NCBI RefSeq assembly: GCF_964272895.1
Contig: NZ_OZ186833.1
Coordinates: forward strand, 60,034-124,033
Direction of reading: 5' to 3'
Source: Streptomyces sp. enrichment culture
GTDB taxonomy: Bacteria > Actinomycetota > Actinomycetes > Streptomycetales > Streptomycetaceae
Length of the DNA stretch: 64,000 bases
Positions 5,308 to 38,390 of the stretch are shown piece after piece (position 1 is the first letter of the stretch; each line of letters begins with the position of its first letter). Both the position numbers and the translations under genes were made by a program. Under the pieces are notes generated by a model. The model searched no databases. It saw only the letters and a list, made by a program, of their open reading frames with translations, and was not told the origin of the DNA.

Positions 5308-8755
<3,448 letters not shown>

Positions 8756-17905: not shown

Positions 17906-18961
17906 TCAGAAGTAGCTGGGATGCCGGCGGCCCGTGCGGCCCCGGAACACCCACCAGCTCATCGTCTGGTACGCGAGGATCACCGGGATCAGCACCAGCC
18001 CGAAGCCGGTGAGGATCTTCAGCGTGGCGCCGTCCGTGACGGCCTCGTCGACGGTCAGGCCCGCCGTACCGTCCGCGCCGGCCAGCAGATACGGGTGCTG
18101 TCCCGCGCCGATGAGCAGCACCAGCAGGACGACCGCCAGACAGGTGCCCGCGAAGGCCCGCACGCGGTGCCCGCGCCCCACGGCCCACCAGGCGCCGGCG
18201 AGCACCGCCGCGATCAGGACGGCGAGGACCGCCCCCGTCGGGGCGTTGGCCAGATCCGCGCCCGCGCCGGACAGCGTCAGCAGCAGCGGCACGGCAGCCG
18301 CGGCACCCGTCGCCCGCAGCAGCACGGCACCCAGCCGCCGGGCCCGCGCGGCGGTGCCGGGGGCCCCGCGCAACGCGACGAAGCCCGCCCCATGGGCCCC
18401 GAGCAGCAGGGTGAAGGTCACGCCGCAGGACAGCACGAACGGCGAGAACACCTCGCCGAACCCCACATGGAAGGACCCGTCCGGCCGCCGCGGCACACCC
18501 CGCAGCAGCAGCCCCACGACGAGCCCCCAGCACACCGCGGGCACCACACCGCCGAACACGATCAGCGCCTCCCACCTGCGGCGCCCGGCCGCACTGCGGG
18601 CGCGCCGGCGCAACTGGATCGCGGCGTTGCCGACGACCAGACCGACGAGGACGGCCACGATCAGCGGGTACAGGCCGGACAGCAGAGTGCCCTCCAGATG
18701 CGGGAAGGCACCGAACATGACGCCGGCGAAGGCCACCAGCCAGACCTCGTTGCCCAGGAAGAACGGCGCCATGGCGTCGAGGGCGGCGTTGTCCGCGCCG
18801 CGCTCGCCCTCCCCGTCCCCGCCGCCGTCCCGCTCCTCGGAGCCGCGCAGGAAGGGGTGCAGCATCTGCACGCCGTAGTCGTAGCCGCCGAGCACGAAGT
18901 ACCCGGCCAGAAGCAGCCCGAGCAGGGCCAGCCAGAGGGTCTCCAGACTCATCTCGCTCAA
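17906..18961 (-). CDS. cydB: cytochrome bd ubiquinol oxidase subunit II
   Basis: GYFVLGGYDYG, PFFLGNEVWLV; multiple TM segments; start 18961 (TTG) or 18952 (ATG). Confidence 0.92.
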   Translation of the reverse strand: MSEMSLETLWLALLGLLLAGYFVLGGYDYGVQMLHPFLRGSEERDGGGDGEGERGADNAALDAMAPFFLGNEVWLVAFAGVMFGAFPHLEGTLLSGLYPLIVAVLVGLVVGNAAIQLRRRARSAAGRRRWEALIVFGGVVPAVCWGLVVGLLLRGVPRRPDGSFHVGFGEVFSPFVLSCGVTFTLLLGAHGAGFVALRGAPGTAARARRLGAVLLRATGAAAAVPLLLTLSGAGADLANAPTGAVLAVLIAAVLAGAWWAVGRGHRVRAFAGTCLAVVLLVLLIGAGQHPYLLAGADGTAGLTVDEAVTDGATLKILTGFGLVLIPVILAYQTMSWWVFRGRTGRRHPSYF

Positions 18962-19003
18962 CTTTCCGTCACGGGAGGGCAGTTCATGACGCCGGTCGGC
19001 GGC

Positions 19004-20275
19004 TCAGTAGGCGTGGACCACCTGCTTGTCCGCCGGGGCGGGCGGTTCGGCGGCACCCAGCTGGGTGGCGTCCGGCCCGCGGCGGGCGAAGCGGGTGATG
19101 AGGGTCCAGTTCACGACCGCCAGCGCGACGAAGACGGTGACGAACACGGCGCAGGAGACGACCAGGGAGGTCCTGCCGACGTGGGACAGCGCGTCCTCGA
19201 CGGTCAGCTCGCCGTAGATGATCCAGGGCTGCCGCCCGATCTCGCGGACGATCCAGCCGCCGATGGAGGCGATGAAGGGCAGCGGGATCATCGCCGTCAT
19301 CAGATAGGCCATGGGACGCCACTTCACCAGGCGGTCCTTCCACAGCAGGAAGACGGCGACGAAGGTGATGGTGGAGACGGTGTTGCCGAGGACCGACATC
19401 ACATCCATGGACACCCGCACCCAGTCCTGCCAGGGCACATAGTCGCCCGGACCGTAGGTCTCGGCCATCCGCGCCTGCACCGCGGCCACGTCGCCGCCCT
19501 CGATCAGGGCGTGCTTCATCGGCTGGGTGTCCTCGATGACGGGCTTCTGCAGCTCGCCGAGCACGACGACGAAGAACGAGGCGACCATGCTCACCCACAC
19601 CCCGATGCGCAACGAGCCGCGGAACAGCTCCGTCTCCTGGGTGCCGCGCGCGAAGTGCCAGGCGCTGAACCCGGCGACGAGGACACCGCCCGTGGTGAGC
19701 GCGCCGAGCGAGAGATGGGCCAGGGCCGTCAGGGACATCGAGTTGGTCAGCAGCGCGGTGAAGTCCGTGAGGTAGGCGACGCCGTCACGCACCTCGTAGC
19801 CGACGGGATGCTGCATGAAGCCGTTGGCGACCAGGATCCAGTAGCCCGAGGCGTACGCGGTCAGGGCGACCAGCCAGATGAGGGTGACATGGACGCCCCG
19901 GCGCAGCCGCCCCCAGCCGAAGATCCACATGCCGAGGAAGGTGGACTCGGCGAAGAACGCGATGAGCGTCTCCAGCGCCAGAGGGGCGCCGAAGACATTG
20001 CCCGCGAACTTGCTCAGGCCGCTCCAGCTGAGCCCGAACTGGAACTCCATCACGATGCCGGTGACGATGCCCACCGCGTAGTTGATGACGTAGAGCTGGC
20101 CCCAGAACCGCGTCATGCGCTCCCGCACGGCCCGCTTGGCGGGATCGCGGCTGTACGCCGCCCTGGTGTGCATGAACGCCACCAGCGGGACGAGGCCCAT
20201 CGTGAGGATCACGAACAGCCAGTGGATGCCGGTGGTGGCCGCGAACTGGAGTCGGGCCAGTTCCGCAGCGCTCAT
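19004..20275 (-). CDS. cydA: cytochrome bd ubiquinol oxidase subunit I (short Q-loop, 423 aa)
   Basis: LARLQFA..IHWLF, GIVMEFQFG, FFAESTFLG, ANGFMQHP, QPMK, REIGRQPW. Confidence 0.94.
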   Translation of the reverse strand: MSAAELARLQFAATTGIHWLFVILTMGLVPLVAFMHTRAAYSRDPAKRAVRERMTRFWGQLYVINYAVGIVTGIVMEFQFGLSWSGLSKFAGNVFGAPLALETLIAFFAESTFLGMWIFGWGRLRRGVHVTLIWLVALTAYASGYWILVANGFMQHPVGYEVRDGVAYLTDFTALLTNSMSLTALAHLSLGALTTGGVLVAGFSAWHFARGTQETELFRGSLRIGVWVSMVASFFVVVLGELQKPVIEDTQPMKHALIEGGDVAAVQARMAETYGPGDYVPWQDWVRVSMDVMSVLGNTVSTITFVAVFLLWKDRLVKWRPMAYLMTAMIPLPFIASIGGWIVREIGRQPWIIYGELTVEDALSHVGRTSLVVSCAVFVTVFVALAVVNWTLITRFARRGPDATQLGAAEPPAPADKQVVHAY

Positions 20276-20435
20276 GGTGCGACCTTCCTGGGCGACGGCG
20301 GCCGGTGGGGCTGCGGGGCCTCGCATCGCGCGCGCGGCCGACGGGCGGCGCCGCCCGTCATCTGTGCGGTGACCCCGCCGAAGATCATAGGGACAACCGC
20401 TTATGCGTATCCAAGACCTTATTTGCCATGTGATG

Positions 20436-20451
20436 ATGCCTCAAAAGGCAT
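20436..20451. promoter_or_regulatory. inverted repeat ATGCC-N6-GGCAT in the cydA/LysR divergent region; possible LysR site
   Basis: Direct reading; 16 nt upstream of the LysR start. Confidence 0.4.
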
Positions 20452-20466
20452 AAGGCGAGGTGGACG

Positions 20467-21399
20467 GTGGATCTGCGGCAACTGCGCTACTTCCAGACCG
20501 TCGCGCGCCACGAGCACATGAGCCGGGCCGCGGAGGAACTGCACGTCGCCCAGCCCGCGCTCAGCCGGACCATCGCCCGCCTGGAGGCCGACCTCGGCAC
20601 CGCGCTGTTCGACCGCAAGGGGCGCCGCATCCGCCTCAACCGGTACGGGGAGATGTTCCTGCGCCATGTCGACCGCGCCCTCAGCGAACTCGACGACGCC
20701 CGCAGGGCGCTGCGCGACGCCCGGGACACGGGGCTCGGGCGGGTCAGCATCGCCTGCGAGACACTGCTGACCATCACCCCGGTCCTCGGCGGCTTCCGGG
20801 AGGCGTGGCCGCACGCCGATGTACGGCTCTACCAGTCCAACGCGCGTGAGATGAGCCGCCAGTTGCAGGCCGGGAAGGTCGACTTCTGCGTCGCCTCCCA
20901 GCCGCTGGCCGGCACGGGCCTGGAGGCCGTCGAGCTCGCCCGGGAGGAGGTGCTGCTCGCGGTCCCGCGCGGGCACCGGCTCGACGGGCGCGACAGCGTG
21001 ACGATCCGCGAGATCGCCGGCGAGCCCTTCGTCACCACGCGGCCCGGACACTGGCAGCGCGCCCTGCTCGACCGGCTGTTCGCGGCGGAGGGGCTGGTCC
21101 CGCCGCTGTCCTGCGAGGCCGACGAGCCGGCCGCCATCCAGGATCTGATCAGTGTGGGCCTCGGCATCGGCCTCATCCCCGCGGTGTCCCGGCAGGCCGG
21201 CACGGACACGCACGTCCCGGTCGCCTGGGTCCATCTGGACGCCCCCGAGTGCCACCGCGTGCTCACCCTCGTGCACAGCCGTGACGCCTATCTGTCCGAG
21301 GCGGCCCTGAGATTCCGGGAGTTCGTCACCAGCAGGCCCTTCATGACCCACCACCTCCCCGACCTGCGCCGCGGCCGCGGGACCCAGCCGCACCCGTAA
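20467..21399 (+). CDS. LysR-family regulator (PpzY-like position)
   Basis: MDLRQLRYFQTVARHEHMSRAAEELHVAQPALSRTI HTH; divergent from cydAB. Confidence 0.95.
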   Translation: MDLRQLRYFQTVARHEHMSRAAEELHVAQPALSRTIARLEADLGTALFDRKGRRIRLNRYGEMFLRHVDRALSELDDARRALRDARDTGLGRVSIACETLLTITPVLGGFREAWPHADVRLYQSNAREMSRQLQAGKVDFCVASQPLAGTGLEAVELAREEVLLAVPRGHRLDGRDSVTIREIAGEPFVTTRPGHWQRALLDRLFAAEGLVPPLSCEADEPAAIQDLISVGLGIGLIPAVSRQAGTDTHVPVAWVHLDAPECHRVLTLVHSRDAYLSEAALRFREFVTSRPFMTHHLPDLRRGRGTQPHP

Positions 21400-21463
21400 C
21401 GCCGTAACGCCGTAGCGCCGTAACGTCGTAGCGCCATAGCTCCGTATCGCCGTGGCGCCGTGG
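21394..21463 (+). repeat. 8-nt tandem repeat (CCGTARCG), about 8.5 copies, starting at the LysR stop codon
   Basis: ccgtaacg ccgtaacg ccgtagcg ccgtaacg tcgtagcg ccatagct ccgtatcg ccgtggcg. Confidence 0.85.
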
Positions 21464-21501
21464 AGGCGGGATCCGTCGCGGGCGGCCGACCGGTCGGCGC
21501 G

Positions 21502-21528
21502 CGTCACATCCTCGTCCAGCGGATCGTC
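21502..21528 (+). promoter_or_regulatory. ECF41-type promoter motif CGTCACA-N16-CGTC overlapping the ECF gene stop, pointing antisense into it
   Basis: Direct reading; best match of the three motifs to the recalled ECF41 consensus. Confidence 0.35.
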
Positions 21529-22154
21529 CCTATCAGCCCGTCGACGATCTCCAGGGACAGGGCCGTCAGCGCCCTGCCGGTGCGGTCGCGGAAGACCGCG
21601 CCGGGGCGGCCGTTCACCGGCCGCGTGTCCATCGTCACGCCGATGCGCACGAGTGGCGGGACGATCGCGGCGAGCACCCGCGCCACCTGTTCCGCGCCCA
21701 CGATGCGCTGCGGCCAGGGCGGCGCCTGACCGCCGCCGTCGCTCGCCCTCGACACGGCCTCCACCAGCCGCCCGGCCGCCGCCTCCGAGCACCCCACGGC
21801 CGACGCGATCTCGGCCGGACCGCACCCCAGCACCTCATTGAGCACGAAGACCGCGCGCCCGAGCGGCGACAGCCGCTCCAGCAGCACCAGGGCCGCCGTG
21901 GTCAGCGGCTCCGCGAGATCCCGGCACTCCGCGGGATCGACGCAGCGCGGCCCGTCGCCCGCCGGATGCCGCATGGACAGCGCGATCCGGGTCACCGCGG
22001 CCGGCAGGAACTCCGGGCGCACGACAGGCGCGGCCTCGTACTGGAGCCACGCCTCGTGCACCGCCTTGTCCGCCTCGTCGGCGACGCCCAGGATGCGGTG
22101 GGCGAGGCAGAACAGCACGGGCCGTGACTCCCGGAACGCTTCGGCCCGGCTCAC
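21504..22154 (-). CDS. shortened ECF41/SigJ-like sigma factor (216 aa)
   Basis: F..RPVLF.LAHRILG..DEAD.AV.EAW; LLERLSPLGRAVFVL.EV; C-terminal DGGG..IVGAEQVAR..VNGRPG SnoaL-like remnant; GGGGGAGG RBS. Confidence 0.75.
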   Translation of the reverse strand: MSRAEAFRESRPVLFCLAHRILGVADEADKAVHEAWLQYEAAPVVRPEFLPAAVTRIALSMRHPAGDGPRCVDPAECRDLAEPLTTAALVLLERLSPLGRAVFVLNEVLGCGPAEIASAVGCSEAAAGRLVEAVSRASDGGGQAPPWPQRIVGAEQVARVLAAIVPPLVRIGVTMDTRPVNGRPGAVFRDRTGRALTALSLEIVDGLIGTIRWTRM

Positions 22155-22262
22155 GAGGCGCCTCCCCCCTGGATGGCGAGCCATGATGGCGGACGGGCCG
22201 TCGACGAGACGAGACGGCCCCGACACCTAGGACAGGCCACAGGCGGCGGACGTTCCGTCGGC

Positions 22263-22628
22263 TCAGCCCGTCGTGTGGTGTCCCGGCTCCGGCGGCAGGA
22301 TCAGCGTCGGCTCGACGACCACACGCGGTACGGCGGGCTCCTTGCGGGTCCAGGACACCGCGTGCCGGGCGCCGCGCTGCTGGCGCCAGTGGGCCTGCGC
22401 GAACACGACGGCGACATACGGGATGCCGACCGCGCCCACCAGGGCGCAGACCGCGACGACCGGCCAGCGGCTCCAGGTGAGGGCCATCACGACCACACAG
22501 GCGGTGCGGATCAGCATGGCCCCGAGGTAGCGGCGCTGGCGGCCGCGCAGATCGTGGGTCAGACCGGTCCGCGCGCGGGTGATGGACTCGGCGCGGGAGG
22601 TCTCCCGGCGCCAGAAGGTGGTGCTCAT
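22263..22628 (-). CDS. DUF3099-family small membrane protein
   Basis: SIT.AR..L..D..GRQRRY..AMLIRTAC..TM..IPYVAVV.A pattern. Confidence 0.75.
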   Translation of the reverse strand: MSTTFWRRETSRAESITRARTGLTHDLRGRQRRYLGAMLIRTACVVVMALTWSRWPVVAVCALVGAVGIPYVAVVFAQAHWRQQRGARHAVSWTRKEPAVPRVVVEPTLILPPEPGHHTTG

Positions 22629-22861
22629 CGGACCTCCGTGGGCGTTCCGGCGGGCACGGGCGTTTCCGGCGGCCGGGGAAGGACGGCGGGCGTGGGCGTT
22701 GCGGCACGGGCAGGGTGAGGGCGTCGCGGTGGGTGGGGGAGAGCGGGTGAGGGCGGGGGAGAGCGGGTGACGGCGTCGCTGCGGGCTCGGGAGGAAGCGG
22801 CGGGCGGGGATGTTGCGAGAGGCCGGGGCTGCGAGAAGCCGGGGGCTGCCACAGACCGGGG

Positions 22862-22948
22862 GCTGCGGGAGGCAGGGGTGTGGTGGGAGGCGGGGTGCTG
22901 CGGCAGGCAGGGATGTCGCGGCAGGCAGGGGCGCTGCGGCAGGCCGCG
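22862..22948. repeat. degenerate ~18-nt tandem repeat, about 5 copies
   Basis: gctgcggcaggcaggg-like units between qcrB and DUF3099. Confidence 0.55.
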
Positions 22949-23026
22949 GAAAGACGGCGGCGCGGGTGACCGTCCCCTGATCACCCGCGCCGCCCCTGGT
23001 CCGGCCCTCTGCGCCATGCCGCCAGG

Positions 23027-24745
23027 TCAGTGCAGTTCCTGCTGCTCCGTCTCCCGCGCCTCGGCACGGCTCTGGGCGCCGATCTTCGGCTGCCCGTTCG
23101 GCGAGCCGTGCCCGTTCGCGTGCTCGAAGTGCTCCAGCGCCTCGCGCATCTCCTCCAGCGTGGGCTTGGCGATCTGCCCGCCGTACAGCCAGCGGCTGAC
23201 CCGGTAGCGCAGCATCTGCTTGCGCGCCTTGGGGTTGGGCACACCGTCGCGTTCGGCGGCGGGCGCGGGCAGCGGCTTGTACTCGTGGCGGGCCAGCAGC
23301 GCGTACTCCTGCTGGCGGTCCAGGCGCTCGTGCACCTCGACGAACTCGCCGTGCGGCAGCCTGCGGATCCGGCCGGTCTCGCGGCCGTGCAGGAGCTTGT
23401 CGCGGTCCCGCCGCTGCAGGCCCAGACAGATCCGCCGGGTGATGATGTACGTCAGCGCCGGGACGACGAAGACTCCGATCCGGACCGACCAGGTGATCGA
23501 GTTCAGCGACAGGTGGAAGCGCTCGGCCAGGATGTCGTTGGAGCCACCGAAGAAGAGCACCAGGTACAGCGAGACGAACGCGACGCCGAACGCGGTCCGC
23601 GTGGGGTGGTCGCGCGGCCGGTCCAGGAGGTGGTGTTCCTCCTTGTCGCCGGTCACCCAGGCTTCGAGGAACGGCCACAGGGCGATCACGGCCATCATCA
23701 GGGTGGGCAGGATGACCGCGGGGATCAGCACGCCCATGTTGACGGTGTAGCCGCCCGGCAGCACGAACTCCCAGGCCGGCATGGCCCGCAGCGCGCCTTC
23801 CAGGAAGCCCATGTACCAGTCGGGCTGCGACCCCTGCGAGATCTGGTCGGACCGGTAGGGGCCGTACCTCCAGATCGGGTTGATCTGCGCGATGCCGGCC
23901 ATCAGGGCGAGCACACCGGTGACGAGGAAGAAGAACCCGCCCGCCTTGGCCGTGTAGTGCGGCATCAGAGGCTGGCCGACGACGTTCTTCTCGGTGCGGC
24001 CCGGACCCCGGAACTGGGTGTGCTTGTGGTAGAAGACCAGGATCAGGTGGATCGTCATCAGGGCGACGATGATGCCCGGCAGCAGCAGGATGTGGATGCT
24101 GTAGAACCGCGGGATGATGTCGGTGCCCGGGTACTCGCTGCCGAACAGCAGCATCGTCAGATACGTGCCGACCAGCGGGATGGCGAGTGTGATGCCCTCG
24201 GTGATGCGCAGACCGGTGCCCGAGAGCAGGTCGTCCGGGAGCGAGTAGCCGACGAAGCCCTCGAGGGTGACCACGACCAGCAGCACGAAGCCGATGAGCC
24301 AGTTCGCCTCACGCGGCTTGCGGAACGACCCGGTGAGGAAGTGGCGCAGTGTGTGGACACACAGGGCCGCGATCATGGTCAGCGCCGACCAGTGGTGCAG
24401 CTGGCGGATGAACAGGCCGCCGCGCACATCGAAGCTGATCTCGACCGTCGACTCGTACGCCCGCGACATCGGGATGCCCTGCAGGGGGGCGTGCGTGCCC
24501 TCGTACACGACCTCCGACATGCTCGGGTCGAAGAACATGGTGAGCCACACGCCGGTGAGCAGCAGCATGATGAAGCTGTAGAGCGCGATCTCACCGAACA
24601 TGAACGACCAGTGGTCGGGAAAGACCTTGCGGACCAGGAACCTGAAGTGGTAGATCCCGAGCCGTCCGTCCGCCCAGTCGGCGATCCGTTCGCCTCTAGG
24701 TGCCTCGGTGCGGGCACCAACTGGCGCTTCTTGGGTCGTGCTCAT
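23027..24745 (-). CDS. qcrB: cytochrome bc1 cytochrome b subunit, standalone paralogue
   Basis: KVFPDHWSF.FGEIALYSF, RQLHHWSA, GYSLPDDLLSG, HILLLP, SQPDWY; no qcrA or qcrC nearby. Confidence 0.96.
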   Translation of the reverse strand: MSTTQEAPVGARTEAPRGERIADWADGRLGIYHFRFLVRKVFPDHWSFMFGEIALYSFIMLLLTGVWLTMFFDPSMSEVVYEGTHAPLQGIPMSRAYESTVEISFDVRGGLFIRQLHHWSALTMIAALCVHTLRHFLTGSFRKPREANWLIGFVLLVVVTLEGFVGYSLPDDLLSGTGLRITEGITLAIPLVGTYLTMLLFGSEYPGTDIIPRFYSIHILLLPGIIVALMTIHLILVFYHKHTQFRGPGRTEKNVVGQPLMPHYTAKAGGFFFLVTGVLALMAGIAQINPIWRYGPYRSDQISQGSQPDWYMGFLEGALRAMPAWEFVLPGGYTVNMGVLIPAVILPTLMMAVIALWPFLEAWVTGDKEEHHLLDRPRDHPTRTAFGVAFVSLYLVLFFGGSNDILAERFHLSLNSITWSVRIGVFVVPALTYIITRRICLGLQRRDRDKLLHGRETGRIRRLPHGEFVEVHERLDRQQEYALLARHEYKPLPAPAAERDGVPNPKARKQMLRYRVSRWLYGGQIAKPTLEEMREALEHFEHANGHGSPNGQPKIGAQSRAEARETEQQELH

Positions 24746-24843
24746 CCCCGCGCGCCCTCCCCTCGCGTGCCGTGAATCGGCTGGAACCGTATCCATGCCT
24801 CACTCGGTCGGACAACCGCATACCCCTCGGACGCGGTAGTCAA

Positions 24844-24860
24844 CTCAAGTGATTCTTGAG
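24844..24860. promoter_or_regulatory. perfect inverted repeat CTCAAG-N5-CTTGAG upstream of qcrB
   Basis: Direct reading; 99 nt upstream of the qcrB ATG. Confidence 0.45.
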
Positions 24861-25086
24861 CGAGTTTCGAGCTGCCTGGGCGCACATTGGCCTCTTGCGT
24901 ACCTAACACGCCTGAAAAGCCCGCCCAGTTACCGGCCCGCACCCGCCTTCGGCCGGTCAAGTCGCCGTAAGCGGCGGCCAGTTGCTCCACTCTTTTCATG
25001 AACGACAGTGTAGTTGTCCCCTGTCCAGCGGCTTCGGCCGGGCCGGGCATTGCGGACCGCAGCCGAACGGTGGGCGCGGCCGCAGG

Positions 25087-26613
25087 TCAGCCGCTCGTGC
25101 CGCTGCGCCGCGCCGAGGAGTTCACGGCCCGTGGCCGGGCCGGGCCGCCGGAGATTCCGGTGGCGGGGGCGGCCGGTGCGGCACGGCGGCGCCGGGCGCC
25201 CTGGCCGTGGGTGGTGCTGGGCGGGGCCCCGAGCACCGGCCGGCGCGGGGCGCGCAGCACCGCGCGCAGTGCGTTGCGGCGCGGTCCGGTGGCGGGGGCG
25301 GTGATGTTCTGCAGGCGGTCGAGCAGCAGCCGGGCCGCGTCCTCGTCGGTGGTCGCCGCCGCGGCCAGCCGGGCCGTGCGGTGCCGGCCGATGCGGGCGC
25401 GCAGCCCGTCGGAGGGCAGGTCCGGGCCGGTCCCCGCCGCGCCGAGGCTGCGCAGGCTGGCCTGCCAGGTGGGCGCCAGATGCTGGGCGAGGGCCTGGCG
25501 CAGCCGGAAGCTGATGCCGGTGGCGGTGCCGTGGTCGGTCAGCACATGGTCGAGGACGAGGGCGCACTGCACGGCGAGCGTCATCCCGTGGCCGTGGGCC
25601 GGGTCCAGGGTGATGAAGGCGTCACCGACGACGAGGAACCGGTCGGGCCAGCGGCGCAGCCGTTCGTAGTGCCGCCAGCGGTTCTCGGTGCGGGTGCAGG
25701 CGTAGACCGGGCCGAGGGGAGTGGCGGCCTCGATGACCTCGCGCAGCAGCGGATGGCGCAGCTCGCCCGCGGCGCGCAGCAGGCCCTCGTGGTCGGTGGG
25801 CGGCGGGCTGCCGTCGCGGGCGCTGAGCGTCACCGACCAGCGGCCGCCCTCGACGGGGTGCAGCACGCCCTGGCGGGGGAGGTCGGGGGTGCCCATCAGC
25901 AGCAGGCTGCTGAAGTCGGCGACATGGCCGACCGGAGGCGCGAACACGGTCGAGGCGTAGGTGGTCGCCGTGCGGACGGCCGACTCCTGGGGTGTCCGGT
26001 AGCCGAGTTCGGACAGCCAGCGGGGGGCGCGTGAGCCGTGCCCGCCGGCGTCCACCACGAAGTCGGCGGGAATCAGGTGCCGGGGGCCCCAGCCGCCGGG
26101 TGCCCGCCGGTCACGGCCGCGCACCCACACGCCGGTGACGGTGTCGCCCCGGCCGGGGGCGAGGGAGACGGCCTCGAGCTCCTGGAGGAAGGTCACCTTC
26201 GGGTCGGCGTACAGCCGCTCGCGTACGACGGCGTCGATCAGGTCGCGGCCGGCGCTGAGCAGCGTGAGGCCGGCGTCGAAGCGGGGCAGCCAGCCGGCCG
26301 GGCCGAGCAGCAGCATGTCCTGCGGCACGCGGACGCGGACCGCGCCGGCGCCGGTGAGGTCGGCGACGATGCCCGGGAACAGCTGCTCCAGGCCCTGGTG
26401 CGCGGCGGGCATGAGGGTGTGGGTGTGCCGGGCCTGGGGCACGCCCCGGCGCCGCCCGGATCCGCGCGGCGGCCGGTCGCGCTCGATCACGGTGACCCGG
26501 TCCATGAAGTTGGCCAGGGCGCGGGCCGCGGTGAGCCCGGCGAGACCGGAGCCGATCACCACGGCGTGACCGTGGCCGCCGGCCCCGCCGACGGCTCCTG
26601 ACTCCCGTCTCAA
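25087..26613 (-). CDS. flavin-dependent monooxygenase, MonCI/Lsd18/XiaH epoxidase-like
   Basis: AVVIGSGLAG, VTVIERD, RGVPQARHTH, VVGDA..DP..G.GMT; TTG start. Confidence 0.75.
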   Translation of the reverse strand: MRRESGAVGGAGGHGHAVVIGSGLAGLTAARALANFMDRVTVIERDRPPRGSGRRRGVPQARHTHTLMPAAHQGLEQLFPGIVADLTGAGAVRVRVPQDMLLLGPAGWLPRFDAGLTLLSAGRDLIDAVVRERLYADPKVTFLQELEAVSLAPGRGDTVTGVWVRGRDRRAPGGWGPRHLIPADFVVDAGGHGSRAPRWLSELGYRTPQESAVRTATTYASTVFAPPVGHVADFSSLLLMGTPDLPRQGVLHPVEGGRWSVTLSARDGSPPPTDHEGLLRAAGELRHPLLREVIEAATPLGPVYACTRTENRWRHYERLRRWPDRFLVVGDAFITLDPAHGHGMTLAVQCALVLDHVLTDHGTATGISFRLRQALAQHLAPTWQASLRSLGAAGTGPDLPSDGLRARIGRHRTARLAAAATTDEDAARLLLDRLQNITAPATGPRRNALRAVLRAPRRPVLGAPPSTTHGQGARRRRAAPAAPATGISGGPARPRAVNSSARRSGTSG

Positions 26614-27412: not shown

Positions 27413-28477
27413 TCACGCGTCGCGGTAGGCCACCCACTTGGCCATGTTCTTCAGCTCCTCCCGCCACACCGGGTCGATCGGGGCGTCGGCGATGGCCTTG
27501 CAGCCCCGCTCGACGAGGCCGGCGATGTGCCGCTCGACGTCGTCGGGGACCTTGGTCTCCAGGAGGTGACGGCGCACGTCGTCGGCGCTGTGCCCCGGCT
27601 CGGTGATCAGGGTGTGGATCGACTCGTCGCGCTGCATCGCCCAGCCCAGCAGGAGCGTCATCTTGTGCTGGCTGAAGTCGAGACCGGCGGGCTTGCCGGT
27701 GGTCGCGGAGTCCCCGAAGGCGTCCAGCAGGTCGTCCCGGAGCTGGAACGCCTCGCCCACCGCCTCGCCGTACTCCGCGAACGCGGGCGCGAGATCGGCG
27801 CGGCCCGCCACGCTCGCGCCGACGAGCAGGGGCCGGTGGATGGTGTAACGGCCGGACTTGATGACGGCGATCAGCCGCGACAGCCTCGGGTCGACCGAGA
27901 ACTCGGCGGCCGCCACCACGTCCATGTACTGGCCGATCAGCACCTCGGCGCGCAGCCTGTTCCACTCCTCGACGGCCGCCACCGGCGCCTCGGTCATCAA
28001 CTCGTCCGCGTAGACCAGGGCCAGGTCGCCGACGATGACGCCCACCCCCTCGCCGAACCGGCGCGACTCGCCCTGCCAGCCCCGCTCCTGGTGCACGGCG
28101 GTGTGCTTGGCGTGGACGGTCGGCAGTCCACGCCGCTGGCTGGAGTCGTCCAGGATGTCGTCGTGCACGAGCAGCGCGACGTGCAGCATCTCCAGGGCAG
28201 CCGCGGCCGCCACGATCCCTCGGTCGTCGGGGTCGCCCCCGGCCGCGAGATGACCGGCGATGCAGAAGGCGGGCCGGACGCGCTTGCCACCCGACGCCAT
28301 CAGCTCGGACAGCGCGTCGAAGGGCACGACCGACCGTTCGTCCACCTCCGCCCACGTGTCCCGCCCGGCGGAGAGCTGGGACCGCAGCCGGTCCTCCACG
28401 CGCTGCAGCAGGTCGGCGCTGGTGCGGCGCGCGAGGTCGGCCCCCTGGCCGGCGTCGTTGGTCACGTCGGGAGTCAC
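27413..28477 (-). CDS. trans-polyprenyl diphosphate synthase (GPP/FPP/GGPP)
   Basis: GGKRVRP, LVHDDILD..RRG, FQLRDDLLD; GTG start after GGAG. Confidence 0.93.
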   Translation of the reverse strand: MTPDVTNDAGQGADLARRTSADLLQRVEDRLRSQLSAGRDTWAEVDERSVVPFDALSELMASGGKRVRPAFCIAGHLAAGGDPDDRGIVAAAAALEMLHVALLVHDDILDDSSQRRGLPTVHAKHTAVHQERGWQGESRRFGEGVGVIVGDLALVYADELMTEAPVAAVEEWNRLRAEVLIGQYMDVVAAAEFSVDPRLSRLIAVIKSGRYTIHRPLLVGASVAGRADLAPAFAEYGEAVGEAFQLRDDLLDAFGDSATTGKPAGLDFSQHKMTLLLGWAMQRDESIHTLITEPGHSADDVRRHLLETKVPDDVERHIAGLVERGCKAIADAPIDPVWREELKNMAKWVAYRDA

Positions 28478-28923
28478 ACAAATCTCCTTGAGTAGATGTA
28501 CGGACATCGGTGCACCAGCAAAGCGGTGACGCTCAGCCGGTGCCGCAGGGCTCGGCCGCCGCGGGCCCTGACTTCAGGTGACCATGCCGACTTGGGGCGA
28601 ATCTGGAGTTCCCCTTTAGCGACGATCGACTGCGCATAGTGAACGTTGACACCCCGAACGAGCGCGTGGAAGCCTCCTTGTGCACCCATAGTTTCACGCC
28701 TTGGCCGCCGCATGGGCATGGAACGCGAGCACCGTATCCGCCGCACACATCAGGGCTGGCACGCGCCGGACCAGACCCGACTTTCTGCGCCGAAATTCCC
28801 CGGACGGTCCGTTCATCGGCGAGCGGCGTCCTTTCGGTGATTCTCGGCGTCTGCGATCAGCATGGGGGAATCTCTGTGTTTCCGGGATGGTCGCGGGACG
28901 AGCCACGACGTGAAGGAGCCTGA

Positions 28924-29553
28924 ATGGTGTATCACTTATGCCTCAGAAATCACAGCCAGGAACTCCCCGCAGCCACCGGGTCCGTCCTCTGCCGCTCCTG
29001 CATCAGGCAAGTGGAGAGCAACCTGCGCGCGCTTCCCGGCCTGTACCAGGAGAGCCTGCACCACGTAGCACCCATCGCCCGGCGGGTGAACCAGACCAGA
29101 GTGTCCGGCAGCCGCAACCGGGACCGCCTCGACCTGTCCGTGCTCGACGCCAGGAACAACATCATGACCATTCTGGAGTCATGGTCGGTGTTCGTCACGG
29201 AAAAGCTCGGAAATGACGCCCCCGCGCGATCGGTGCCCAACCTTTCGCGCTTTTTGCTGCGCCATCTCGAATGGCTCGTCGCACAGCCTCCGGCCGCCGA
29301 TTTCGCCGACGAGATCGACGGCCTGAGACTGGAATTGCTGCACACGATCGACCCCGCTCCGGGTGAACATCACGTGTCCAGCAGGGAGTGCGTCGTGGAC
29401 GACTGCACAGGGACGATCAACACCTCACCGCAACGTATCGGAAACACAGGAAAGAGAAGCATCCAGTGCAGCTCGGGACACACATGGGAAATGCACGAAT
29501 GGATCACTCTGCGTCCGCTCATGGAGCGGCAGCGGAAGGCCGTCAGCACATGA
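28924..29553 (+). CDS. OvmZ/PpzV-like Cys-rich putative regulator; TTA at codon 5
   Basis: LCRSC, LPGLYQE, ILESWS..V, FLLRHLEWL, C-terminal CVVDDC..CSSGH.W; coupled to a small HTH gene. Confidence 0.7.
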   Translation: MVYHLCLRNHSQELPAATGSVLCRSCIRQVESNLRALPGLYQESLHHVAPIARRVNQTRVSGSRNRDRLDLSVLDARNNIMTILESWSVFVTEKLGNDAPARSVPNLSRFLLRHLEWLVAQPPAADFADEIDGLRLELLHTIDPAPGEHHVSSRECVVDDCTGTINTSPQRIGNTGKRSIQCSSGHTWEMHEWITLRPLMERQRKAVST

Positions 29554-29732
29554 GCAGACCGCCACGCCACCGGCTGGTGCCCACGAACGTGGCCGCCCTC
29601 GCCGCAGGTGTGTCCGAGGCGACGATCCGCAAGTGGGTCAGCCGCGGCAAGATCACCCGGTACGGCAGGCCGGGCCGCTCCGAGTTCGACATCGACGAAC
29701 TGACCCAGATCGCGCTGAGCCGACAGCGCTGA
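29550..29732 (+). CDS. OvmW-like 60-aa HTH (MerR/excisionase-type) protein
   Basis: AALAAGVSEATIRKWVSRGKI; ATGA overlap with the upstream gene. Confidence 0.75.
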   Translation: MSRPPRHRLVPTNVAALAAGVSEATIRKWVSRGKITRYGRPGRSEFDIDELTQIALSRQR

Positions 29733-29849
29733 CACCACCGCCACATCACAAGTCGTAGCATCCGCGCAGGTCGGCGGGGTACCTGCGGGTGTGACCACGA
29801 CTACCCGATCGTCGGGCGCCAGTCAGCGGCGCCCGACGATCGGTGCTTG

Positions 29850-31286
29850 TCACCCGTGCGCCGAGGGCAGTGGCCGGGACAGCGCGCGGTCCGTCAAGGC
29901 ACCGGCCGCCCCGGTGTACGCCTCCGGCTCGAACAGGTCGGTCAGCCGGGCGTCGGCCGCCAAGGCTGCCGCCCGGTCGTCCTGCCGCAGCACCTCGGCC
30001 AGCGGCTCACCGGTGCGCGCCGACCGGGCGGACGCCTCGTTCAGCAGCTCGCGTGCCCGCGCCTTGCCCAGCAGCGGGGCGAGGACGGCAGCGATCCGCT
30101 CGGACACGATCTGCCCCCCGGTGAGCTCGGTGTTGGCGCGCATACGCGCCGGGTCCACCGCCAACTGGCCGACCAGTTCCACCGCCTGGTGCGCCGCCCC
30201 GCCCGCCAGCCGCAGCAGGGCGCGCAGCGGCTCCCACTCCGCGTGCCAGGCACCCGCGGAGCGCTCGTCCTCGCTCGGCAGACAGCCCAGCACCGTCGCC
30301 GCGAGCTGCGGCGCCTGCAGCGCGGCCGACCTGATGGCCGTCGCCAGCACCGGGTTGCGCTTGTGCGGCATCGCCGAGGACGCCCCCCGCCCACTGGGCG
30401 CCGGCTCGTGCACCTCACCGACCTCCGTCCGGGTCAGCGACAGCACATCGACGGCGATCTTGCCGAGCGCGCCGCACACGAACGCGGCGGCCACCGCCAC
30501 GTCCACGACCGGCGTACGCAGCACATGCCACGGCACCAGCGGTACGGCAAGCCCCAGTTCGGCGGCGAACGCCTCCGTCAGCTCCCGCACATACGCGGCC
30601 CGGTCCACGCCCGGCGCGAACTCCAGATACCCGGCCAGCGTGCCGGCCGCCCCACCGAGCTGCACGGGAAGCCCACCGGCGCTGAGCCGGTCCAGCTTCT
30701 CCACCGCGTCCAGCAGCAGATGCCGCCAGCCCGCCGCCTTCAGACCGAAGGTCGTGGGCACCGCGTGCAGGGCCAGCGTCCGGCCCGCCATCAGCGTGTC
30801 CCGGTGCTCGGCCGCCAGGACGGCCAGCGCCCCCTCGACGCGCTCCAGGTCCGCGCGGATCAGCCCGAGAGCCCGCCGGGCGACCAGCACGCTCCCCGTG
30901 TCGAGGATGTCCTGGCTGGTCGAACCGCGATGCACATACCCGGCCGCCTCCCCGTCCTGACGGGCCACCAGCGCGGTGAACTCCCGCACCAGCCCCACCA
31001 CCGGGTTGGCGGACTCGCGCGCCTGCCGCGCCAGGGCGACCAGGTCGAGCCGGTCGGCCCGCGCGGCCTCGGTGATCACCCGCGCGGCCGCCTCGGGCAC
31101 CGTCCCGAGCCGCGCCTGCGCCCGGCTCAGCGCCGCCTCGGCATCCAGCATGGCCTGCAGCCACGCCCTGTCGGACACCGCCGCCGAGACCGGGGTGTCC
31201 GCCCACACCGGAGACAGCAGACCGGCCTCCGGCGCCGCCCCGAGGCCGGGCGCCGCGTCCGCGGCGAAGCCGATGTCAGAGGGCAT
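29850..31286 (-). CDS. creD: nitrosuccinate lyase (CreD/Fur17-like; fumarase/ASL superfamily)
   Basis: HRGSTSQDI, GASSAMPHKRNP signature; overlaps the 3' end of the creE homologue. Confidence 0.85.
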   Translation of the reverse strand: MPSDIGFAADAAPGLGAAPEAGLLSPVWADTPVSAAVSDRAWLQAMLDAEAALSRAQARLGTVPEAAARVITEAARADRLDLVALARQARESANPVVGLVREFTALVARQDGEAAGYVHRGSTSQDILDTGSVLVARRALGLIRADLERVEGALAVLAAEHRDTLMAGRTLALHAVPTTFGLKAAGWRHLLLDAVEKLDRLSAGGLPVQLGGAAGTLAGYLEFAPGVDRAAYVRELTEAFAAELGLAVPLVPWHVLRTPVVDVAVAAAFVCGALGKIAVDVLSLTRTEVGEVHEPAPSGRGASSAMPHKRNPVLATAIRSAALQAPQLAATVLGCLPSEDERSAGAWHAEWEPLRALLRLAGGAAHQAVELVGQLAVDPARMRANTELTGGQIVSERIAAVLAPLLGKARARELLNEASARSARTGEPLAEVLRQDDRAAALAADARLTDLFEPEAYTGAAGALTDRALSRPLPSAHG

Positions 31287-33366
31287 GGGTGAGTCCTCCT
31301 GTGAGGTCTTTCCGTCCATACGCACCGACCCCGCCGGCCGGCACGCCCGCGCTGTCGCCTCCGTCCCGCTCGACCGGGCTGCCGGCTTCGCCCCGCTCGA
31401 CCGGGCTGCCGGCTTCGCCCCGCTCGACCGGGCTGCCGCCTTCACCTCGCTCGGCATCGCCCTCGAACCCGAGCGCCGCGCGGGCGATGGCGTCGGAGTC
31501 GGTGAGCGTCACGGAGTTCACGCCCGGCCGGATACCGGCCGCCGTCACCCAGTGCACCGACTCGGTCGGCACACCGAACGCGAAACGGCGCGGATGCGCC
31601 CGCCCGTCCGCGTCGAGCAGACGGAACGGCCGCTCGGTGACCGCCAGTCCGTCGGTCTCCCACCAGCCGCCGTCCCGCGTACGGATGCGGTATCCGCCGC
31701 ACTGCCCGGTCGCCAGCAGATGCCGCAGCAGCGGATCGCGCGTGCGCCGCAGCGTGATGTCCGGCAGCCGCGCCTCGACCAGCGCCTCCACCCGCACCTC
31801 CGAGCCCGGCACGAGCGGCGAGGAGGCCAGATATCCGCCGGAGCCGGCCACCACCCGCAGATCGGGGCCGACCACACGCAGCACACCGGCCTCGATCAGG
31901 GCCACCATCTCCTCCACCCGGCGGGCCGGCGGACCGATCGACAGATACGCGTTGAGCGGCGTGTACCAGCCGTCGAGATCGGCACGGTAGGAGTCACCGT
32001 GCAGCCCGCCGTGATCGACGGCCAGCCGGATCTCGTTGCGCAGATCCCGCAGCACATCGAGCGCCGCCTTCACCGGACCGCTGACGTTGCCGGAGCGGGC
32101 CTCGGCCACATCCTGGCGCAGATGGTCGAGCAGCCAGCCGGTGAAGTCCTGCGGCCCGCTGAACTCCCGGTCCCGGTAAGGGCGGGCGAGCAGGTCCCAG
32201 TCCCAGCGGTCCTTGTCCTCCAGGCCGTACGCCGTGAGCACCGCGTCGGTGTCCCGCGCGCCCCAGCCGGCCGCCAGGAAGTCCTCCTGGAACCGCCGCG
32301 CCTCCTCGGTGTGCCCGCGCGAGACGAGCAGCGTCCGGTAGTAGACGGTCTCGACCTCGCGGGCGATCAGCGGCCACAGATGCTCCTGGAAACCGAGCCC
32401 GGTCCGCCCGTGCGCCCGGCGCAGCGCGGCGATCCGCTCGACCGTGAGCAGCAGCGGTTCATGACGGCCGTGCGGGCCCTTCTCGTTCTCGCCCCGCGCC
32501 TGGTACGGCACACCGCGCCGCGAACCGGCGTACAGCCGCGGCTCCTGCCCCGAGGGCCGGTACACCAGCCGGCCGCCGGTGCGCGCGTAGGAGCCGCCGC
32601 GGCCGACGGTGAGCTCGGTCATGTAGTCGAAGAAGTTCAGCCCGAGCCCGCGCAGCAGCACCGTTCGGCCCGGCGCCAGCCCGGTCAGGTCGACGTCGGC
32701 GGGATTGGCCGGCGCCACATGGGTCAGACCCGCCTCCCGGACCCGGTCGAGGAACTCCCGCTCGGCGGCGTTAGCCGCGGCCGGCAGATGGCCCTGGCAC
32801 AGGATCACCGCGTCCAGTCCGTCCAGCACCGTTCCGTCGGCGAGCACCACCCGCTGGCGGGGTCCGCCCGGCGCGTCGGGGCCGTCGTCCAGGGACACGG
32901 CGAGGCCGGCGTGCGCGGTGACCGTCAGTCCGGCGGGCGCGCGTTCCAGCACCCGCCCGTACACCCACCGCAAGTAGTCCCCGTAGAAGGCGCGCGTCGG
33001 ATAGGTGTCGGGGCCCAGCGTGCGGGCCTCCTCGATCACATGGGCCGGATGGTCGTCGCCGAACTCCCCCGCGAGCAGAGCCACCGACCACTCGTACAGG
33101 CTCGGGCCGGGTTCCAGGGGACCGCGAAGGTCGACCGAGGCGTCGGTGAACACCGAGATCTGCCCGGCGACCGTGTTCATGAGCAGGTGACGAGACTGGT
33201 CGGTGCGCCACACTCTGCCGGGTCCCGGCGGGTAGGGGTCGACCACATGGACATGGGTGGTCCGTTGTTCGGGCTGTGAGCGGGCATTGGCGCACAGTCG
33301 CTCCAGCACGGAGAGCCCGCGGGGACCGGCGCCTATCACGCACACAGTGCGATGTGTCGTAGTCAT
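31276..33366 (-). CDS. creE: L-aspartate N-monooxygenase (CreE/Fur16-like)
   Basis: VIGAGPRGLSVLERL, LLMNTVAGQIS, YPTRAFYG.YL, RGLGLNFFD, GSRRGVPY.ARG, GVPTESVHW.TAAG.RPG. Confidence 0.9.
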   Translation of the reverse strand: MTTTHRTVCVIGAGPRGLSVLERLCANARSQPEQRTTHVHVVDPYPPGPGRVWRTDQSRHLLMNTVAGQISVFTDASVDLRGPLEPGPSLYEWSVALLAGEFGDDHPAHVIEEARTLGPDTYPTRAFYGDYLRWVYGRVLERAPAGLTVTAHAGLAVSLDDGPDAPGGPRQRVVLADGTVLDGLDAVILCQGHLPAAANAAEREFLDRVREAGLTHVAPANPADVDLTGLAPGRTVLLRGLGLNFFDYMTELTVGRGGSYARTGGRLVYRPSGQEPRLYAGSRRGVPYQARGENEKGPHGRHEPLLLTVERIAALRRAHGRTGLGFQEHLWPLIAREVETVYYRTLLVSRGHTEEARRFQEDFLAAGWGARDTDAVLTAYGLEDKDRWDWDLLARPYRDREFSGPQDFTGWLLDHLRQDVAEARSGNVSGPVKAALDVLRDLRNEIRLAVDHGGLHGDSYRADLDGWYTPLNAYLSIGPPARRVEEMVALIEAGVLRVVGPDLRVVAGSGGYLASSPLVPGSEVRVEALVEARLPDITLRRTRDPLLRHLLATGQCGGYRIRTRDGGWWETDGLAVTERPFRLLDADGRAHPRRFAFGVPTESVHWVTAAGIRPGVNSVTLTDSDAIARAALGFEGDAERGEGGSPVERGEAGSPVERGEAGSPVERDGGDSAGVPAGGVGAYGRKDLTGGLTHAL
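31366..31446 (-). repeat. 27-nt coding tandem repeat, 3 copies (ERGEAGSPV), in the creE C-terminal tail
   Basis: Units start at 31366, 31393, 31420. Confidence 0.9.
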
Positions 33367-33505
33367 GTTTCCTGTCTCTGCCGATGTCGAGGAACCGAGC
33401 CGGGCCGTGCGGGACCGCGCTGGACCTTCAAGGCGTCGAACAGACAGGTGCGTACGCCGTGACGGCCCGCCGGACAGCACCGGCGGGCCGTCACATGAGG
33501 GCGGG

Positions 33506-33970
33506 TCAGCCCAGGTAACGCTGGATCGTCGGGCTCAGCAGCTGGATCAGCTCCTCGCTGGAGGCCGACGCGATCGGTTCGAGCTTCACGATGTAGCGCA
33601 GCAGGACGACACCCCACACCTGCGCCGTCGCGGCGTTGATGTTGATCGGGGGCACGCCGATGTGCGCGGCCGCCTCGTGCAGGTCCATGCCCTCCACGCC
33701 GATGGCCTTGCCGGCCTGCGCGAACAGCTGCTTGTCGAGGAGCTGGCGCATCGCTGCGGCGCCCTGCTCGCTGTTGACCGCGGCCTGCAGCACACCGAGG
33801 AGCCTCGGCCGGGCCTGGGGGTCCTCCCACATGACGAAGGCGGCGCGCAGCAGCCCCTCGGCCAGCTGCTCGCGCGCGCCGGCCAGGGCGGTGGCACCGG
33901 CCTCGCCGAGCACCCCGCCGAGCTCGTTCACGGCTGCGGTCCCGGTGTCGGAATCGAAGGTTGCGGACAT
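33506..33970 (-). CDS. TetR C-terminal (ligand) domain-only protein, no HTH
   Basis: LLRAAF..WEDP..RP.L..VL.AA; VVLLRYIVKLEPIASASSEEL..L.PTIQRYL; strong AGGAGG RBS directly before the ATG. Confidence 0.75.
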   Translation of the reverse strand: MSATFDSDTGTAAVNELGGVLGEAGATALAGAREQLAEGLLRAAFVMWEDPQARPRLLGVLQAAVNSEQGAAAMRQLLDKQLFAQAGKAIGVEGMDLHEAAAHIGVPPININAATAQVWGVVLLRYIVKLEPIASASSEELIQLLSPTIQRYLG

Positions 33971-33981
33971 GTCTCCTCCTG

Positions 33982-35052: not shown

Positions 35053-35247
35053 AGCAACCGAGCCCTTTCGGTGAGGGGAAGTGGTCTGTTGTGCAAGGCG
35101 CCCGGCAGACCCCGCCGGCCGGTCGGCCGCGGTCGGGCCGACGCGGCACGAGGCGAGCGGCGGGGGAGTGAGCGGGGAGCGGCGTGACGGGGGTGGCGCT
35201 GCTCCCCGCCGGCTTCGGGGCGGCGCCGACCGGCGCGGGCGGGCGGG

Positions 35248-36459
<1,212 letters not shown>

Positions 36460-36562
36460 GGCACTCCAAGACATGGGTGGGTGAACACAAGGAAAAAGCG
36501 CAGGTGGTGCGCCCGGACCCCGGGTCCGCGCACACCACCTGCGATCAGGTCGGGCACTTACC

Positions 36563-38149: not shown

Positions 38150-38285
38150 GGGGACTGTCTCCTTTGCGGTGAGCGAATGGGCGTGCGGGCTGTCGCCGGC
38201 GCCGTGCGCGCTGTGCGGAACACACGACGGACACCGGGGACGCTGCGGCCCGTTGTGGATTGCGGGTGCCGGAACTGGCCGCGGA

Positions 38286-38336
38286 AAAGGCCGTGGCGGT
38301 GGCCGCCGGCAGAACCTGCCGGCGGCCACCGCCACG
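38286..38336 (-). terminator. strong hairpin after wrbA
   Basis: 21-bp perfect stem 38292-38312/38316-38336, followed on the minus strand by GCCUUUUCC. Confidence 0.75.
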
Positions 38337-38390
38337 ACCGGGGCTTCGACCCGCCGGCTCGCCTCGACCGAGGCGACGCCGGCCTACGGG

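Follow-up and report, generated by a model that had tools for sequence, protein, structure and literature searches.

A cytochrome b paralogue embedded in Streptomyces tetrahydroxynaphthalene meroterpenoid clusters: a candidate self-resistance gene

The subject of this analysis is a 64,000-nucleotide stretch of DNA (hereafter, the window) from a Streptomyces sp. enrichment culture (assembly GCF_964272895.1, contig NZ_OZ186833.1, positions 60,034 to 124,033), and in particular a paralogue of qcrB, encoding the cytochrome b of menaquinol:cytochrome c reductase, that the window carries among biosynthetic genes. The contig, referred to as C2 (the window being C2:60034-124033), is a 140,871-bp second replicon found beside a 7.54-Mb chromosome (C1). 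An earlier, model-generated reading made from the sequence alone (the sequence-only reading) had described a full-length cytochrome b lacking qcrA and qcrC, and both parts of that description were borne out. Specifically, the open reading frame at 23027-24796(-) matches Pfam Cytochrom_B_N_2 at 4.7e-62, its product scores 747 bits against the NCBIfam model bc1_QcrB_actin (NF050120; cut-off, 500), and residues 52-513 align to mycobacterial QcrB structures at about 1e-171, with corynebacterial QcrB also among the solved matches in the PDB. Because the public-data gene call (P0002) is a 572-residue product, the gene probably starts at Met18 and spans 23027-24745. Only two cytochrome b genes occur in the genome, the other being the housekeeping qcrB at C1:2.08 Mb, which lies in a ctaE-qcrC-qcrA-qcrB arrangement and whose product, when aligned with the paralogue as had been proposed, proved distinct at 61% identity. 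The genome thus has a second, divergent qcrB copy in addition to an intact housekeeping gene. Unlike the usual actinobacterial QcrB, the paralogue is not part of a qcrCAB operon beside cta genes; its neighbours are biosynthetic genes. Searches by tblastn with the chromosomal QcrA and QcrC returned the chromosomal copies only, and since the 141-kb replicon has neither partner, the paralogue must work with the chromosomal QcrA and QcrC. Its catalytic equipment is complete: the haem-ligand pairs His134/His148 and His235/His250 are invariant in a 30-sequence alignment, with b6-type spacings of 14 and 15 residues, and the PDWY motif and the Tyr164 and Glu314 equivalents are likewise invariant. The ratio of nonsynonymous to synonymous substitution rates is about 0.39 in the clade to which the paralogue belongs versus 0.33 among housekeeping qcrB genes, both being rough values (NG86, strong GC3 bias) that serve only to compare the two groups.

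The paralogue belongs to a discrete lineage. In a sample of 300 Streptomyces genomes, all 300 carried housekeeping QcrB copies at 58-64% identity to the paralogue and about half had two or more QcrB matches; 13 carried a 70-83% identical orthologue, forming a set of their own. A maximum-likelihood tree that included the orthologues of these 13 genomes and of two named strains placed the cluster-linked QcrB sequences in one clade (SH-aLRT 99), apart from and outside the clade of Streptomyces and Kitasatospora housekeeping QcrB. This branching position indicates an old paralogue or a transferred gene rather than a recent duplicate. In a large protein database, about 84 cluster representatives at an identity of at least 68% were found, all from Streptomyces and separated by a gap from the housekeeping group.

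Members of the clade sit among the core biosynthetic genes of 8-aminoflaviolin-type tetrahydroxynaphthalene (THN) meroterpenoid clusters. The Fur3-like aminotransferase, which is diagnostic of 8-aminoflaviolin pathways, was present in 27 of the 300 genomes, including 11 of the 13 clade-positive ones (odds ratio 93, p = 2.5e-11), and its gene lay 3-18 kb from qcrB wherever contigs permitted checking. A one-strand gene order, CreE-CreD-epoxidase (FAD enzyme)-QcrB-DUF3099-THNS-MomA-Fur3-Fur5, recurs among these loci; in the window's cluster, the order is rearranged relative to the furaquinocin cluster of Streptomyces sp. Je 1-369. The epoxidase-QcrB-DUF3099 module was also found on 20 plasmid records, often linear plasmids. 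For example, a 101-kb linear plasmid of S. xanthophaeus has the full cluster, with annotated neighbours that include an aromatic prenyltransferase and a complete mevalonate pathway. The qcrB paralogue is a conserved, integral component of the biosynthetic cluster and not a stray gene. The sequence-only reading had linked it to either a prenyl-naphthoquinone or a phenazine product, and the neighbourhoods of the orthologues, with their THN/8-aminoflaviolin genes and MonCI-like epoxidase, favor the former link and not the latter.

Two further loci illustrate the range of settings in which the clade occurs. Genome G106 has two copies of the whole cluster, with qcrB, DUF3099 and Fur3 in each, placed mirror-symmetrically near both ends of the 12.1-Mb chromosome (C1:210016-211689 and 11913121-11914794 of that genome), which suggests that it is located in terminal inverted repeats. 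At 68-70% identity, the clade member that diverges most (G257; its protein is named Streptomyces boninensis) is accompanied by CreD, CreE, MetK, MetH and a pfkB kinase, with DUF3099 13 kb away, the epoxidase 17 kb away and no THNS, MomA or Fur3; this locus may be a different nitrite-dependent cluster that uses the same module.

The DUF3099 gene that the sequence-only reading had placed downstream of qcrB was recovered with a match to PF11298 (9.5e-18; 64.6 bits versus a gathering cut-off of 23.2). In 11 of 12 assessable genomes, the qcrB orthologue is followed directly by a DUF3099 gene, and these qcrB-linked copies are 65-77% identical to that of the window, as opposed to only 38-52% for the chromosomal DUF3099 of each genome. 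No solved structure proved related to the protein at E <= 1, and the chromosomal DUF3099 gene, which adjoins tyrS and other non-respiratory genes, offers no functional clue. The gap between qcrB and DUF3099 (window 22629-23026) measures 398 nt, against some 100-200 nt at the loci of the orthologues (199 nt on the S. xanthophaeus plasmid as annotated); no feature was recognised within it. On the other side of qcrB, the predicted flavin-dependent epoxidase of the prenyl chain matches the polyether epoxidases MonCI (9e-62) and Lsd18/LasC (1e-57) in the PDB, and its counterparts adjoin the qcrB orthologues in 11 of 14 loci. Neither a linked QcrB paralogue nor a close epoxidase homologue was found in the 16 genomes that are Fur3-positive and lack the qcrB clade. 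Pairwise distances among the QcrB proteins correlate best with those of the epoxidase (rho 0.53), followed by those of DUF3099 (rho 0.39), and show no correlation with CreD, CreE or MomA. QcrB, DUF3099 and the epoxidase are present or absent together and hence form an accessory unit, one that sets apart a subclass comprising about 40% of Fur3-type clusters. A stand-alone MonCI-like epoxidase paralogue (69% identical) is also found on the chromosome at C1:5894641-5896218, with no other cluster homologues around it.

The region upstream of qcrB is conserved as well. The palindrome CTCAAG-N5-CTTGAG to which the sequence-only reading had drawn attention is present as an exact match (CTCAAGNNNNNCTTGAG; 0.06 matches expected from shuffles), with no second exact copy on the plasmid and none in the 7.5-Mb chromosome, and the same or a near-identical palindrome occupies the same place upstream of the qcrB orthologues. 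Between it and the gene, an alignment of 13 upstream regions defined a block with promoter-like hexamers, TTGTCC at 24815-24810 and TACGGT at 24791-24786 (TAGCGT in orthologues), separated by an 18-nt spacer; in the orthologues, the block also has a third half-site, ACTTGAG. A generic scan of 21400-25200 for sigma-70 promoters and terminators found nothing useful. Since the palindrome, the ACTTGAG half-site and the hexamers are common to the orthologues, they indicate a putative dedicated and regulated promoter for qcrB inside the cluster. A single further site on the plasmid matches the palindrome with one mismatch (CTGAAGAACCCCTTGAG, window 3959-3975); it lies between a multicopper oxidase gene and a pfkB/metH S-adenosylmethionine (SAM)-recycling operon and may offer the same regulator a second place to bind.

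The menaquinol-oxidation (Qp) pocket of the clade differs in its residues from that of housekeeping Streptomyces QcrB. The segment SQPDWYMGFLEGAL is present in the window's qcrB product as described, and in the numbering of M. tuberculosis QcrB taken from PDB 7e1v_N (S304 Q305 P306 D307 F308 Y309 M310 M311 W312 T313 E314 G315 L316 A317 R318), the two Leu residues of SQPDWYMGFLEGALR align with T313 and A317, as the sequence-only reading had proposed. All 84 clade representatives have Leu at both equivalents, and in 82 of the 84 the ef-helix reads MGFLEGALR. The corresponding motif of housekeeping Streptomyces QcrB is MGF(S/A/T/P)EGL(I/V)R, so that the housekeeping copies, which the sequence-only reading had expected to share these residues if it were wrong, have Ala, Ser, Thr or Pro at the T313 equivalent versus invariant Leu in the clade. 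When the residues that contact Q203 and TB47 in the Qp site (PMC8616580) were considered as a set, clade-discriminating substitutions fell at 6 of 17 contacts (positions 179, 184, 187, 304, 313 and 317), compared with 62 of all 459 positions (p = 0.018, one-sided Fisher test). A further group of clade substitutions was located in the cd1 helix at 156-159, where the states V156, T157 and L158 are the only ones peculiar to the cluster clade. Position 342 (Phe vs Leu) was dropped from consideration, its alignment having differed between two MAFFT runs. In the ungapped register from PEWY to Arg, T313 and A317 would correspond to yeast F278 and L282, at which changes confer resistance to atovaquone (PMC7391622). 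The same pocket and the same ef-helix positions are at issue in M. tuberculosis QcrB, the target of telacebec (Q203), and in the cytochrome b targeted by atovaquone (PMC8616580, PMC7391622), although the M. tuberculosis and yeast changes are point mutations selected by synthetic drugs, unlike the residues of the cluster clade.

Lone QcrB paralogues are not confined to biosynthetic clusters, as the sequence-only reading had itself cautioned in pointing to those of S. coelicolor, namely QcrB2 (SCO7120) and QcrB3 (SCO7236) (PMC7931247). QcrB3 co-purifies with bcc-aa3 supercomplex components and has been proposed to be a spore-specific substitute for QcrB (PMC7931247); this co-purification shows that substitution of the subunit is feasible. 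Like the window's QcrB, the S. coelicolor proteins are full-length cytochromes b without a qcrA or qcrC of their own. In contrast to them, the cluster clade forms a separate, supported branch, has no adjacent ctaD paralogue, is partnered by DUF3099 and the epoxidase, and lies inside a biosynthetic cluster. In the survey, a second lone-QcrB lineage (G279, G249, G025) with the motif GFLEG(A/S)LR always adjoins a paralogue of cytochrome c oxidase subunit I (COX1/CtaD). It is found outside biosynthetic clusters and beside PAS/GAF-SpoIIE regulators, with a PAS/GAF-SpoIIE-HATPase regulator directly upstream at one locus (L162), and from its gene neighbourhood it is probably of the S. coelicolor QcrB3/CtaD2 type. 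The clade of the window is not, by either neighbourhood or tree, since it has no COX1 gene nearby and branches apart from the ctaD2-linked sequences, even though both have the ef-helix motif. A third lineage (G177, G015, G078, G275, G076), with the motif GFAEGMVR, is sister to the housekeeping clade; in G177, the gene is close to the end of the chromosome, with genes for a SpoIIE-type regulator and a penicillin amidase next to it.

Among described clusters, the closest precedent is the furaquinocin K/L cluster of Streptomyces sp. Je 1-369, in which a cytochrome b gene appears as Orf25 in the annotation table with no function proposed (PMC9686526). The arrangement of SAM-recycling genes in that cluster is said to be identical to that of the FNQ I cluster of S. 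cinnamonensis DSM 1042 (PMC9686526), an indirect indication of the cytochrome b gene that the sequence-only reading had attributed to the fnq cluster. The window's cluster differs in being a hybrid that includes phenazine genes and in lying on a 141-kb replicon. The KO-3988 fur cluster contains nothing that corresponds to Orf23-25 (PMC9686526), and the study of the furaquinocin pathway mentions no cytochrome (PMC11969235); the module is therefore dispensable for biosynthesis. Searches of the available literature found no report of QcrB or cytochrome b as a cluster-encoded resistance determinant, and the cytochrome b gene, tabulated once in such a cluster, is not known to have been interpreted before.

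The wider setting is a hybrid cluster on C2, with phenazine genes in its left half and THN-meroterpenoid genes in its right half (Table 1). The phenazine half contains PhzF, PhzE, a DAHP synthase and a chorismate synthase, together with SAM-recycling genes. The THN half contains a type III polyketide synthase (PKS), a MomA-like cupin, a Fur3-like aminotransferase, a Fur5-like ligase, the CreE/CreD nitrite pair, methyltransferases, MetK and a polyprenyl synthase, and the replicon also carries the genes for an ABBA prenyltransferase and the mevalonate pathway, immediately to the left of the window (C2:37.9-48.9 kb). The window's divergent cydB and cydA and its LysR regulator gene have their equivalents in ppzZ2, ppzZ1 and ppzY, which belong to the endophenazine cluster of S. 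anulatus (PMC3326630). The plasmid CydA (window 19004-20326) is short, at 440 residues, and only 33% identical to the chromosomal CydA; its Pfam match falls into two stretches, the best of which covers profile positions 1-250 of 418. No cydCD-like transporter genes, which the S. anulatus ppz cluster has, were seen beside cydAB in the window, where the chorismate synthase gene follows instead. A gene for an ECF41/SigJ-like sigma factor (window 21504-22226) adjoins the DUF3099 gene, and four more paralogues are found on the 141-kb replicon at 25-47% identity (C2:2198-2830, 6447-7256, 13139-13564 and 46856-47386).

Table 1. Coordinates of the qcrB module and of the genes around it, in window positions
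Feature	Position	Strand	Evidence and remarks
qcrB paralogue (cytochrome b of menaquinol:cytochrome c reductase)	23027-24745	-	572 aa from Met18; maximal open reading frame to 24796
DUF3099 gene	22263-22628	-	PF11298; 121 aa, two predicted transmembrane helices, GGAGG ribosome-binding site
Flavin-dependent epoxidase, MonCI/Lsd18-like, upstream neighbour of qcrB	25087-26613	-	PDB matches
Palindrome CTCAAG-N5-CTTGAG, candidate operator just upstream of the qcrB promoter region	24844-24860		Perfect palindrome; exact match, conserved in orthologous loci
Conserved upstream block with promoter-like hexamers	24786-24843	-	DNA alignment of 13 upstream regions; putative promoter
THN-meroterpenoid genes surrounding the module	27413-42900	-	Pfam, NCBIfam; same set around orthologues; agrees with the Je 1-369 furaquinocin table (PMC9686526)
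Polyprenyl synthase	27413-28507	-	Pfam/NCBIfam
CreD-like	29850-31457	-	Pfam/NCBIfam
CreE-like	31276-33480	-	Pfam/NCBIfam
O-methyltransferases and MetK	within 27413-42900	-	Pfam/NCBIfam
Fur5-like ligase	36563-38335	-	Pfam/NCBIfam
WrbA-type quinone reductase	38391-39011	-	Pfam/NCBIfam
Fur3-like aminotransferase	about 40031-41200	-	Pfam/NCBIfam
MomA-like cupin	41194-41763	-	Pfam/NCBIfam
Type III PKS	41797-42900	-	Pfam/NCBIfam
Divergent cydB and cydA; LysR regulator	17906-21399		Pfam; phenazine sub-cluster, context only, outside the module

Target duplication is a well-known route to self-resistance, with examples that include SalI (an extra proteasome beta-subunit), GyrB-R of the novobiocin cluster and the FabF variants of the platensimycin cluster, and it forms the basis of resistance-guided mining tools such as ARTS. 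The cluster-linked qcrB has the hallmarks of such genes, being a divergent second copy of a gene for a central, druggable protein that lies inside a cluster and is inherited with it in different species and on plasmids. It also differs from the housekeeping copy in pocket residues, a less certain parallel given that a non-cluster lineage has the same states. Unlike SalI, GyrB-R and FabF, QcrB is one subunit of a membrane supercomplex that must assemble with the QcrA, QcrC and aa3 of the host; its gene also comes with an uncharacterised DUF3099 partner. The interpretation favored here, to which a probability of roughly one half is attached, is that the paralogue is a product-insensitive QcrB isoform that would swap into the chromosomally encoded bcc-aa3 supercomplex and so provide self-resistance by target duplication. 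The paralogue would be a catalytically competent isoform, expressed together with DUF3099 from its own operator-controlled promoter, and would replace the housekeeping QcrB in the QcrA/QcrC-aa3 assembly. The cluster product or its intermediates, prenylated hydroxy- or methoxy-naphthoquinones, would inhibit the bcc complex, and the distinct Qp pocket of the paralogue would keep respiration running in their presence. Self-protection is suggested by a combination of the principle that a paralogue of a central target, when encoded inside a cluster, is generally a resistance gene, the resemblance of prenylated naphthoquinones to menaquinone and to the classical hydroxynaphthoquinone inhibitors of the Qo site, the distinct Qp pocket, the absence of partner subunits, the precedent of QcrB3 and the dispensability of the module for biosynthesis. 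Furthermore, the co-travel of the module with a MonCI-like epoxidase suggests that the epoxidase-dependent subclass of THN meroterpenoids may be the one that calls for protection. A fuller version of the proposal, in which the epoxidase-QcrB-DUF3099 trio marks plasmid-borne THN meroterpenoids with a natural Qp-site inhibitor of bcc, the insensitive cytochrome b is swapped in, and DUF3099 acts as its partner or assembly factor, can be put forward only tentatively.

A number of observations weigh against self-resistance. Streptomyces has cytochrome bd as a respiratory bypass, searches of the available literature found nothing linking furaquinocin-type compounds to bc1 or bcc inhibition, and 16 of the 27 Fur3-type clusters do without the module. 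One clade member, from S. monashensis MUSC 1 (NZ_MLYO01000023.1; 80% identity), is without DUF3099, the epoxidase and THN genes for 10 kb around; instead it is 3-4 kb from PKS (AT-ACP) and non-ribosomal peptide synthetase (C-A-PCP) genes, stands behind an HTH/MarR regulator gene and ahead of LysE and MFS exporter genes, and lacks the upstream palindrome. The pocket itself is an equivocal witness. The enrichment of substitutions at Qp contacts is modest and is tied to a contact list for synthetic drugs. The analogy to Q203 resistance drawn by the sequence-only reading is weakened, for although Leu is found at both sites, the housekeeping copies already have Ala or Ser at the position where T313A gives Q203 resistance and Ile or Val at the 317 equivalent (Ile in M. 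smegmatis). Because Streptomyces housekeeping QcrB already differs from M. tuberculosis QcrB at both positions, the logic of Q203 resistance does not transfer directly. The analogy was downgraded for this reason and because the ctaD2-linked lineage likewise has Leu/Ala/Leu, sharing as it does I178, A179, S304, L313, A/S316 and L317 with the cluster clade. Since the Leu-x-x-Ala-Leu pattern also occurs in this lone-QcrB lineage, which adjoins a ctaD paralogue and has no link to a cluster, the pocket of the cluster clade was probably inherited and not evolved against this product; the clade itself seems to derive, by recruitment, from an alternative-isoform lineage that already existed.

Other explanations must be set against self-resistance. 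The paralogue, with DUF3099 and the host QcrA and QcrC, might form a membrane oxidase of pathway hydroquinones that either feeds the respiratory chain or sets the quinone/hydroquinone state for epoxidase-dependent late steps. The furaquinocin pathway does have hydroquinone intermediates that must end as quinones (PMC11969235), and cluster-borne cytochrome bd genes, ppzZ1 and ppzZ2, affect the yield of prenylated phenazines (PMC3326630); within the cluster clade, all catalytic Qp residues are retained, the gene co-occurs with the MonCI-like epoxidase and their distances are correlated (rho 0.53), and a WrbA-type quinone reductase is encoded in the same cluster. Such a role is nevertheless somewhat unlikely, for flavin epoxidases of the MonCI-like family use NAD(P)H electrons and need no cytochrome, a full Q-cycle subunit seems elaborate for a hydroquinone that can auto-oxidise, the Qp pocket is not exclusive to the cluster clade, and in KO-3988 the pathway lacks nothing although the module is absent (PMC9686526, PMC11969235).

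The very commonness of lone QcrB paralogues (about half of the 300 genomes, with at least two matches each) raises a different prospect, that of a condition-specific respiratory isoform, serving in stationary phase, in spores or under low oxygen, that hitch-hikes on a mobile cluster or plasmid and is unconnected with the target of the product. There are at least two other lineages, of which one adjoins ctaD2 and PAS/GAF-SpoIIE regulators and has the same Qp signature as the cluster clade, and the proposed spore-specific role of QcrB3 (PMC7931247) would fit this idea. It leaves unexplained, however, both the fixed position of the gene between core biosynthetic genes on chromosomes and many plasmids and its tight co-presence and co-absence with one tailoring enzyme, along with the odds ratio of 93 for Fur3-type clusters, and it is accordingly viewed as improbable. 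Finally, the position of qcrB and DUF3099 in the window, between the THN genes and the LysR-cydAB-phz block, invites the thought that the paralogue and the neighbouring cydAB adapt respiration to the redox-cycling prenylated phenazines of the cluster's left half. Only one other plasmid (G296) has phz genes nearby, within 10 kb of the clade member; 12 of 14 other loci have none within 20 kb, cydAB and LysR were never linked to the clade in the other genomes examined, and the published ppz and epz clusters list cydAB-like genes and no cytochrome b (PMC3326630). A phenazine linkage was rejected on these grounds, and this last explanation, largely refuted by distribution, is very improbable.

If self-resistance is the correct interpretation, cytochrome b of the bcc complex would be named as a target for naphthoquinone meroterpenoids whose mode of action is poorly defined, and QcrB would join, as a new entry, the short list of resistance markers by which clusters are prioritised in target-directed genome mining, for which about 84 clusters would be ready. 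The bcc complex, at which the tuberculosis drug candidate telacebec is aimed, is a clinically validated antimycobacterial target, and natural Qp ligands together with a naturally insensitive pocket would inform both inhibitor design and the prediction of resistance. On any interpretation, alternative QcrB isoforms of Streptomyces can be recruited into mobile biosynthetic clusters, DUF3099 acquires its first consistent functional association, namely with cytochrome b, and the three-gene module provides a testable unit that separates two subclasses of Fur3-type clusters.

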